Positions 8,501 through 8,757 of a stretch of 16,419 nucleotides of DNA are shown piece after piece (the first letter of the stretch is position 1; every line of letters starts with the position of its first letter). The position numbers were made by a program, and so were the translations under genes. The DNA comes from a virus. The stretch lies in the UHGV virus genome UHGV-0393364; one strand, given 5' to 3'. The notes beneath the pieces were generated by a model. The model did no database searches and was not told the DNA's origin. It was given only the letters and a program-made list of their open reading frames with translations.

Positions 8501-8533
8501 GTGCTATTTGTTTCATATTTTGCAATCACGATG

Positions 8534-8562
8534 ATGAATATTGCGATTTATGAAACTATAAT
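8534..8562 (+). promoter_or_regulatory. Candidate sigma70 promoter with perfect -10 (TATAAT) and weak -35, upstream of the 53-aa ORF and the four-gene cassette
   Basis: TATAAT at 8557-8562; no good TTGACA at 17 bp (ATGAAT at 8534-8539). An imperfect inverted repeat tgcaatcacg...ttgcgatt lies just upstream at 8521-8548. Confidence 0.3.
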
Positions 8563-8595
8563 AACTGTTGTTTTATACAGTTCTAAGGGGGCGTT

Positions 8596-8757
8596 ATGGC
8601 TATTTCAGTAAAGCCGGTATTGATAAGTGAGAAGCAAATGGAAGCGATAAAGAAAATTCAGGAAGAGCAGCGTAAAAAATCAGGAATTGGAGTAGCGCCA
8701 ACTCTGCATGAAATTGCACGAGGGTTAATAGATAAGGCGCTGGCAGGCTGTATGTGA
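8596..8757 (+). CDS. Small protein, 53 aa, possible ribbon-helix-helix-type DNA-binding regulator
   Basis: Below the track's 60-aa cutoff; found by reading. Strong SD AAGGGGG at 8585-8591; product MAISVKPVLISEKQMEAIKKIQEEQRKKSGIGVAPTLHEIARGLIDKALAGCM has a short N-terminal beta-like segment followed by two amphipathic helices (RHH-like; this is inference). Confidence 0.5.
   Translation: MAISVKPVLISEKQMEAIKKIQEEQRKKSGIGVAPTLHEIARGLIDKALAGCM

Follow-up and report, generated by a model that had tools for sequence, protein, structure and literature searches.

A conserved 53-amino-acid gene of predicted ribbon-helix-helix fold and its palindrome-bearing promoter in front of the ejection-protein genes of an EcCIMP1-type island

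Which factor governs the operon of P22-like ejection-protein homologues in UHGV virus genome UHGV-0393364, and could that factor be encoded by the operon itself? The question was raised by a preliminary description of this DNA, which had picked out an open reading frame (ORF) of 53 amino acids (aa) in front of the operon as a possible small ribbon-helix-helix (RHH) repressor. We have examined this ORF and its surroundings in the whole stretch of 16,419 nucleotides (nt), referred to below as the window. Judged by its gene content, the window is a phage-inducible chromosomal island (PICI) of the EcCIMP1 type, located at tRNA-Thr and served by a P22-like helper phage. The island itself is already published (Pick, Stadel & Raivio 2025, PMC11773190), and that work mentions neither the small gene and its promoter nor the operator-like palindromes and the LexA-type box described here. 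For the helper-exploitation operon of EcCIMP1-type islands, our analysis defines a promoter and puts forward the first candidate for a regulator. From the arrangement of these elements, the chances are about even that the small protein is an autorepressor in the style of Arc or CopG, binding the palindromes over its own promoter and repressing from them. A small autorepressing RHH protein at the head of an operon would be textbook; the surprising lead is that one cassette stands before different DNA-delivery genes across genera.

The ORF is, on the pattern of its codon substitutions, almost certainly a real gene. It begins with ATG, exists as a conserved reading frame and carries a RefSeq accession as a hypothetical protein. 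With the window copy as reference, comparison with 18 homologues gave proportions of synonymous differences (pS) of 0.39-1.0 and of non-synonymous differences (pN) of 0.06-0.37; the Citrobacter copy, for example, differs from that of the window at 30 synonymous and 7 non-synonymous positions. Such saturation of synonymous sites together with a low pN indicates a real gene under strong purifying selection. Nineteen genomic copies from at least 10 genera could be aligned without internal gaps, and K6, V8, L9, Q14, Q22, S29, A34, P35 and the run I40-A41-R42-G43-L44 were invariant among them. Word-based and exhaustive searches showed a small family confined to Enterobacterales, made up of 41 clusters at 90% identity and, in a set of 1.84 billion representatives, of 55 at 50% identity. 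The phage collection gave neither a DNA match nor a tblastn match to the gene, which argues that it was not borrowed from any sequenced phage. Its Shine-Dalgarno sequence had been called near-ideal, a wording that is slightly overstated; the AAGGGGG itself is strong and the 4-nt spacing is short. Homologous loci carry a purine-rich GGAGG or GGGGG at the matching place.

The small gene has the marks of a promoter of its own. A perfect TATAAT, already pointed out in the preliminary description, lies upstream and is invariant or nearly so across genera. A scan for consensus sigma-70 promoters reports none at this place because the -35 hexamer, whose position we inferred from that of the -10, matches the consensus at only three of six bases; the -35 position is occupied across loci by a conserved 'aTGAtc'. 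Immediately upstream lies a strong intrinsic terminator, and terminator-like GC hairpins followed by T-runs are found at the matching place in Citrobacter, Leclercia and P. coffeiphila. Since this terminator stands just 5′ of the promoter, the DNA from the small gene onward is expected to form a separate transcription unit, insulated from the transcript of the primase and origin. Only 16 nt, with no terminator, separate the stop codon of the small gene from the gp14 homologue, and the gp7, gp20 and gp16 homologues follow, which bears out the placement of the ORF at the head of the ejection-protein operon. An Rfam scan of 8012-8600 found no RNA family.

Around the -35 hexamer lies a pair of operator-like palindromes. 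An inverted repeat had been reported at 8521-8548; it is real and conserved, and turns out to be only the inner pair of half-sites of a larger repeat whose 17-nt arms (8510-8526 and 8540-8556) are 82% complementary. The full repeat resolves into two 15-base-pair (bp) palindromes, both TTKCR-N5-YGMAA, placed 30 bp apart from centre to centre, so that four half-sites of the form TTKCA are centred 10, 20 and 10 bp from one another on one face of the helix. The palindromes occupy the flank of the -35 and the entire spacer between -35 and -10, a placement that would be a repressing one, and palindromic subsites that overlap the gene's own promoter are what is expected for an autoregulatory repressor.

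We compared the upstream regions of E. coli, Citrobacter, Serratia and Klebsiella, and then of 16 more genera. Similarity begins abruptly about 85 nt before the ATG and follows a common plan: TTTCAT-N4-TGCAAT, some 12 nt containing a conserved TGAT, ATTKCR-N4/5-TGMAAY, TATAAT, two bases and CTGT. The proximal palindrome is present in 22 of 23 related loci, and its distance from the distal one is exactly 30 bp in 16 of the 23. Among 50 distinct promoter sequences, most of the information resides in the half-sites, the TGAT, the -10 and the CTGT; given that synonymous sites of the adjoining gene are saturated over the same comparisons, these elements are conserved beyond neutral expectation. The palindrome pattern occurs 38 times within the 120 nt 5′ of the gene against 36 times in the remaining 337 kilobases (kb) of the loci compared, an enrichment of about 130-fold. 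When IMG/VR was scanned for the proximal palindrome joined to TATAAT-NN-CTGT, 38 places were found, and a homologue of the small gene came next in 36; of the other two, one lies at a contig end and one, devoid of the distal unit, seems to be coincidental. Across Enterobacterales, the gene is evidently inherited as one unit together with its palindromes and -10.

Two observations on the upstream regions of relatives may be added. The single exception to the linkage of gene and operator is a homologue in Citrobacter amalonaticus (locus L021, 5896-6165) that has no palindromes, -10 or box upstream and seems to be embedded in a longer transcript. In Klebsiella, Raoultella, Pantoea and Chimaeribacter a motif CGATCGAA(A/T)TTAYTC, which contains GATC, stands before the distal palindrome, about 95-110 nt 5′ of the small-gene start (for example in L017, L018 and L051); it is doubled as (A)CGATCAAA in Pantoea and Chimaeribacter, and is absent from the E. 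coli window, where the terminator occupies its place.

Table 1. Coordinates of the small gene, its promoter elements and the genes that follow in the window
Feature	Position	Strand	Description
Intrinsic terminator	8459-8503	+	Hairpin and T-run, -26.2 kcal/mol, z = -6.9 against shuffles; terminator scan agrees
Distal operator-like palindrome	8511-8525	.	TTTCATATTTTGCAA (TTKCR-N5-YGMAA); half of the inverted repeat; high information across 50 promoters
Weak -35, ATGAAT	8534-8539	+	3/6 matches, 17-bp spacer, position inferred from the -10; lies between the palindromes
Proximal operator-like palindrome	8541-8555	.	TTGCGATTTATGAAA; ends one base 5′ of the -10
-10 hexamer, TATAAT	8557-8562	+	Read directly from the sequence
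LexA-type SOS box (predicted)	8563-8582	.	AACTGTTGTTTTATACAGTT, covering the predicted start site; the CTGT-N8-ACAG core spans 8565-8580
Shine-Dalgarno, AAGGGGG	8585-8591	+	4 nt 5′ of the ATG, read from the sequence
Small gene of predicted RHH fold	8596-8757	+	ATG start, 53 aa, MAISVKPVLISEKQMEAIKKIQEEQRKKSGIGVAPTLHEIARGLIDKALAGCM; RefSeq hypothetical protein WP_001018524.1
P22 gp14 homologue, co-transcribed	8774-9235	+	Pfam DUF2824
P22 gp7 homologue, co-transcribed	9229-9906	+	Pfam P22_gp7
P22 gp20 homologue, co-transcribed	9906-11327	+	
P22 gp16 homologue, co-transcribed	11327-13432	+	

The predicted structure agrees with the strand-helix-helix layout that had been proposed for the protein. 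AlphaFold2 modelled the single chain with a predicted local distance difference test score (pLDDT) of 83.7 from 16 sequences, and with a pLDDT of 92.4 and a predicted template modelling score (pTM) of 0.70 from 35 diverse sequences. Both models consist of an extended N-terminus and two helices (residues 12-28 and 37-52), the chain ending just after the second, in keeping with an RHH domain of about 45-55 residues built from an N-terminal strand and two helices. Foldseek was uninformative for a query this small; the close structural neighbours of the model are DNA binders throughout, the nearest structure being the N-terminal domain of TraM. By these models the protein very probably has the RHH fold, and it is rather likely to be a DNA-binding regulator. 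The segment G32-x-A34-P35-T/S36, which leads into helix 2, shows little or no variation in either the 19-sequence or the 35-sequence set, and supplies the Ser/Thr at the start of helix 2 and the Gly-containing loop before it that are characteristic of the RHH phosphate anchor. In TraM the equivalent residues, Ser32-Ser34, form the phosphate anchor (PMC3159463), and the coincidence in position of A-P-T/S with this anchor counts in favour of DNA binding.

By sequence, the protein joins no described family. Profile comparisons with hhalign against Arc, Mnt, CopG, MetJ and F TraM, and against Arc and Mnt of the helper phage Kapi1, taken from the database record, were not significant, with probabilities of 0.1-0.4 for Arc and Mnt. 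Searches of Pfam, PHROGs and NCBIfam returned no RHH match for the protein, the Pfam search of the 19 members giving none even at E = 10, and profile searches of the PDB with 16 and with 35 family sequences gave no match. The RHH fold is well supported and homology to Arc is not, in line with the earlier remark that no obvious similarity to Arc can be seen; we would place the protein in a new family of its own among those with the RHH fold, one that has no name and lies outside the annotation of these three databases.

Directly downstream of the -10 is a sequence of the canonical LexA-box type. Its core, CTGTTGTTTTATACAG, starts two bases 3′ of the -10 and is the sole CTGT-N8-ACAG in the window. 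The box upstream of uvrB in MG1655, CTGTTTTTTTATCCAG, is identical to it at 14 of 16 positions, and one of the two differences shifts the window site toward the ACAG consensus. The 16-bp core, the AT-rich centre and the position at the -10 and the predicted start site are those of a LexA-controlled promoter. Boxes of canonical spacing and different inner bases are present in Citrobacter, Serratia, two Pantoea, Lonsdalea and several IMG/VR contigs, and outer bases that are kept beside varying inner ones are what a LexA site would be expected to show. In about half of the genomic loci, among them Klebsiella, Raoultella, Cedecea and Rahnella, the form is CTG-N9-CAG instead. This N9 form is not expected to bind LexA, given the spacing requirements of the protein, and its presence in many relatives implies that LexA control is not family-wide. 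In Klebsiella-type loci it reads CTGTATAAATATCAGG, one base short of the canonical box, is nearly invariant across several genera and sits about 25-40 nt 5′ of the small-gene start (for example L008, 9960-9985). We discarded the notion that CTGT...ACAG forms a hairpin in the 5′ leader RNA, which folds no better than shuffled sequences (z = -0.49). Whether LexA acts at this promoter in E. coli we regard as evenly balanced on the sequence of the box; the predicted box, which the preliminary description does not mention, is nevertheless the most likely induction input, and it points to the SOS response and LexA as a second input beside AlpA. We found no report in the literature of LexA control of Gram-negative PICIs. 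Operon I of the staphylococcal pathogenicity islands (SaPIs) is described as LexA-controlled (Ubeda et al. 2007, as cited in PMC6092414 and PMC6739421).

Several observations weigh against the small protein being the repressor that occupies these palindromes. In the register set by S11 as helix N-cap, with hydrophobic residues at +4, +7 and +10, to which the hhalign register with F TraM and CopG conforms, V8 and I10 of the single chain lie on the core face, V5, P7 and L9 point outward, and the conserved K/R6 and the polar residue 4 fall on the non-outward face. Base reading by canonical RHH proteins relies on polar ribbon residues, such as K3, Q5 and Y7 of TraM (PMC3159463), and the hydrophobic outward ribbon predicted here lowers our confidence in DNA binding of the canonical kind. 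Palindromes of 15 bp with half-sites 10 bp apart would also suit dimers of helix-turn-helix proteins, and the RHH modules of TraM clash at 10-bp spacing (PMC3159463). Among distant homologues we saw no covariation of protein and operator; those with Q or I at residue 6 retain the TTKCA half-sites, and L072 differs in both the protein and the half-sites. The linkage of gene and operator could simply mirror the common descent of one block of DNA. To these points add the absence of a sequence match in any curated family (Pfam, PHROG, NCBIfam) or in the PDB, and the spacing of the box in the 36 RHH-linked IMG/VR loci, 21 with N9 and 15 with the canonical N10.

Part of this evidence feeds the main rival explanation, which we consider unlikely. 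It holds that the protein is an RHH DNA binder and that the palindromes belong to some other factor, such as a helix-turn-helix dimer encoded by host, helper or island; in that case the small protein would act elsewhere, for example as an activator, at the origin or packaging site of the island, or on helper DNA. The half-site geometry, the clash seen with TraM modules, the hydrophobic ribbon and the constancy of the half-sites while residue 6 changes all fit such an arrangement, and the weak -35 could mean dependence on an activator, AlpA being required for the PICI cycle (PMC11773190). On the other side, the palindrome pair is found nowhere else in the window, which has only one pair spaced 28-32 bp, nor near alpA, nor in Kapi1, where four scattered single matches occur at the chance rate. 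The small ORF is moreover the only gene of DNA-binding fold that constantly accompanies the palindromes, and the proximal palindrome, placed within the -35/-10 spacer, is in a position for repression, not activation. The iterons of the origin (8037-8150) differ from the palindromes in sequence, and in Citrobacter three inserted genes separate them from the small gene. To our knowledge, the palindromes fit none of the CRP, FNR, Fur, ArgR, CytR, Cra, LacI-family or IHF motifs convincingly. Two particular partners were also considered and set aside: helper DNA as the target, Kapi1 having neither the palindrome pair nor CTGT-N8-ACAG, and AlpA as the binder, against which the lack of a palindrome in the alpA upstream region of the window speaks weakly.

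What the small gene precedes differs widely from one relative to another. In the window, the assignment of the co-transcribed genes rests on matches to the Pfam families DUF2824 (gp14), P22_gp7 and Inj_translocase, and to PHROG families of DNA-transfer and ejection proteins. Compared with the corresponding set of Kapi1 (L076, 27948-32582), identity is 83% for gp14, 57% for gp7 and 35% for gp20, in the last case over the N-terminal part only; BLASTP found no match in Kapi1 for the gp16-like protein. The order gp14-gp7-gp20-gp16 is shared by E. coli and Citrobacter, and Serratia has only gp20 and a 943-aa transglycosylase protein; the SLT-containing versions of the gp16-like protein in MP1, Citrobacter and Serratia measure 898-943 aa and differ from the 701-aa protein of the window. 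Chimaeribacter, Pantoea, Lonsdalea and two metagenomic contigs carry tape measure proteins, usually behind a small gene whose product has 68-109 aa (108-109 aa at most loci), and a Dit-like gene follows once (L072). Klebsiella, Leclercia, Cedecea and Pectobacterium carry T7-like internal virion proteins with SLT domains, and Klebsiella michiganensis and Rahnella homologues of baseplate hubs, with small-terminase genes further on in K. michiganensis. Wherever cargo was assigned (L002, L005, L008, L015, L016, L018, L020, L022-L028, L071 and L072), it comprised components of virion DNA delivery or of the tail lumen, from varied phage types. This pattern suggests a family of satellites that brings its own injection machinery. 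In the published account of EcCIMP1, packaging is the candidate role of the DUF2824 and DNA-transfer genes (PMC11773190).

The small protein remains 60-100% conserved while the genes downstream change completely. A constant protein beside a constant motif and swapped cargo argues for a cargo-independent regulator whose target lies in the island, and the swapping argues against both a cargo-specific chaperone and a helper-specific DNA target. It bears directly on a second rival explanation, that the RHH-like fold does not bind DNA at all and that the protein is a small assembly factor, adaptor or inhibitor made in fixed ratio with the virion DNA-delivery proteins. The gene does lie directly 5′ of genes for virion-internal or tail-lumen proteins, in relatives it often shares bases of its stop codon with the following start codon (ATGA), the predicted outward face of the ribbon, with which RHH proteins usually read DNA, is hydrophobic, and the protein belongs by sequence to no DNA-binding family. 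We nonetheless hold this role to be improbable: its partners would be as unrelated as P22 ejection proteins, T7-like internal proteins, tape measures and baseplate hubs, for which a single 53-aa chaperone is implausible, the close structural neighbours are all DNA binders, and the conserved palindromes next door would be left with no obvious binder.

The remaining explanations fare worse. An antitoxin of type II with an RHH fold, like ParD or DinJ, is largely refuted by the gene content and strikes us as very improbable; the chain ends right after helix 2 and so has no toxin-binding tail, the next genes encode virion proteins that vary by locus, Pfam and PHROGs revealed no toxin family, and PADLOC and DefenseFinder detected nothing in EcCIMP1 (Pick et al., PMC11773190). 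That the ORF is a chance reading frame in an untranslated leader, as its shortness and lack of family annotation might suggest, is hardly conceivable for a protein conserved over at least 10 genera despite saturated synonymous sites, with a confidently predicted structure and a conserved Shine-Dalgarno sequence.

If the small protein is the autorepressor proposed here, the operon would work as follows. A promoter with a good -10 and a poor -35 would start transcription about 7 nt downstream of the TATAAT. RHH dimers would settle on the four TTKCA half-sites along one face of the helix, filling one palindrome 5′ of the -35 and the other across the spacer to the -10, and cooperative occupancy of both would block RNA polymerase, so that the operon would limit its own output and cap the amount of proteins that form channels across the cell envelope. 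Host LexA might in addition sit on the SOS box over the start site in the versions from E. coli, Citrobacter and Serratia. DNA damage that induces the helper prophage would then lift the LexA-imposed off state and open the operon, as for SaPI operon I. The preliminary description had imagined that the protein keeps the cassette repressed until helper infection. This does not follow, since a repressor encoded by the first gene of its own operon sets a low steady state and cannot by itself sense a helper.

More tentatively, and with less confidence than in autorepression itself, the small RHH gene and its double operator, joined in some lineages by the LexA box, may form a portable control cassette with which a whole family of PICI satellites in Enterobacterales drives interchangeable genome-delivery modules, from P22-type ejection proteins and T7-type internal virion proteins with transglycosylase domains to tape measure proteins and baseplate hubs. 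Were this true, these satellites would re-equip helper virions with their own DNA-injection machinery, instead of remodelling capsids or redirecting packaging, and the RHH protein would set the dose and timing of membrane-active proteins. The matter concerns many strains, as islands of the EcCIMP1 type occur in about 9% of complete E. coli genomes; the 400 bases surrounding the ORF are present in 499 of 5426.

A Gram-negative PICI is marked by an integrase at a tRNA gene, alpA, a primase with an adjoining origin, the absence of genes for capsid and lysis, and mobilisation that depends on a helper. EcCIMP1 of E. coli MP1 lies at tRNA-Thr between proA and yagU, with int, alpA, antA and primase genes followed by the DUF2824 and DNA-transfer genes, and its excision and transduction by the P22-like helper Kapi1 have been shown experimentally (PMC11773190). 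Mobilisation is thus established for that published pair, and the window copy is assigned to the PICIs from its sequence: the gene order int-DUF6387-alpA-antA-ash-primase at the tRNA site, iterons after the primase and a small protein identical to that of EcCIMP1, which in the MP1 record bears the same accession immediately 5′ of the DUF2824 gene. The copy of the island in UPEC132 likewise occupies tRNA-Thr, beside proA, and runs from the integrase through DUF6387, an AlpA-type helix-turn-helix protein, AntA/AntB, ash, the TOPRIM/DUF927 primase and the small ORF to the four ejection-protein genes and a variable set.

Other parts of the island also caught our attention. Directly 3′ of the primase gene, and separate from the promoter region, three copies of GTTGGTTCA (8037-8063), an AT-rich spacer and inverted TGAACCAAC copies (within 8107-8150) form iterons in the arrangement described for PICI and SaPI origins. 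In Citrobacter (L010/L011, 7822-9741), three genes, coding for SSB, a ProQ-like protein and a protein of 329 aa, separate the primase and origin from the small gene as an insertion, and the promoter and coding sequence of the small gene are intact; the region after pri therefore appears as an insertion hotspot, as it is for PICIs (PMC11364771). Within the ash region, Rfam recognises a C4 antisense RNA (2746-2833, 80 bits) and isrK (2645-2721, 63 bits), downstream of the AntA/AntB antirepressor gene (1262-2095); an Icd-like gene is annotated there in MP1. These elements resemble a P1-type c4-icd-ant immunity module on a PICI, which might serve in helper prophage induction. At the variable end, an abortive-infection gene (Abi_2, Pfam 2.3e-52) at 14628-15650 is replaced in UPEC132 and MP1 by other genes (PerC, pRiA4b ORF-3 family), and this end accordingly behaves as a hotspot for accessory or defence genes. 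Homologues of the small protein are also encoded by several 'non-mobilizable plasmids' of 12-23 kb in PLSDB (hits H22-H26, among them NZ_CP148430.1, 12,152 bp; NZ_CP146545.1, 17,779 bp; and CP031370.2, 19,229 bp), which may be excised circular satellites assembled as plasmids.

Set beside known systems, the locus resembles P22 Arc at Pant in the proposed autorepression at the head of an operon. The preliminary description had gone further and drawn a parallel with the adjacent immI region of P22, which fails on both sequence and location: no relation to Arc or Mnt, including those of Kapi1, is detectable even by profile, and in Kapi1 arc, mnt and ant lie 3′ of gene 16, gene 14 being preceded by the tail-needle gene, whereas the small gene lies 5′ of gene 14. 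It also differs from Arc in having two operators 30 bp apart, a predicted LexA box and predicted outward ribbon residues that are not polar. Proposed autorepression is likewise the point of resemblance to CopG (RepA) of pMV158 at Pcr; CopG and the omega repressor serve plasmid copy-number and partition control, and no sequence similarity between them and the small protein was found. The promoter of dinJ-yafQ of E. coli combines a LexA box with operators for the RHH protein that its leading gene encodes. That operon is a toxin-antitoxin pair, whereas here the cargo consists of virion proteins and a toxin-binding tail is absent from the small protein. The N-terminal RHH domain of TraM from pED208 and F plasmids, the nearest structure, shares 13% sequence identity, and its base-reading K3, Q5 and Y7 correspond to V5, P7 and L9; TraM itself acts at oriT and possesses a tetramerisation and TraD-binding domain at its C-terminus, whereas a 53-aa protein that ends after helix 2, encoded by a chromosomal PICI with no conjugation genes nearby, does not qualify as a TraM-type relaxosome protein. 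SaPI operon I (Ubeda et al. 2007, as cited in PMC6092414) is likewise a satellite operon for helper exploitation that follows the replication module behind a LexA box; SaPIs differ in being Gram-positive elements that carry genes for packaging and capsid size and are not known to begin this operon with an RHH gene, and LexA binding at the present promoter is only predicted. EcCIMP1 of MP1, finally, is an element of the same type at the same site with an identical small protein, and differs in its gp16-like protein, a 906-aa transglycosylase version in MP1 and a 701-aa protein in the window.

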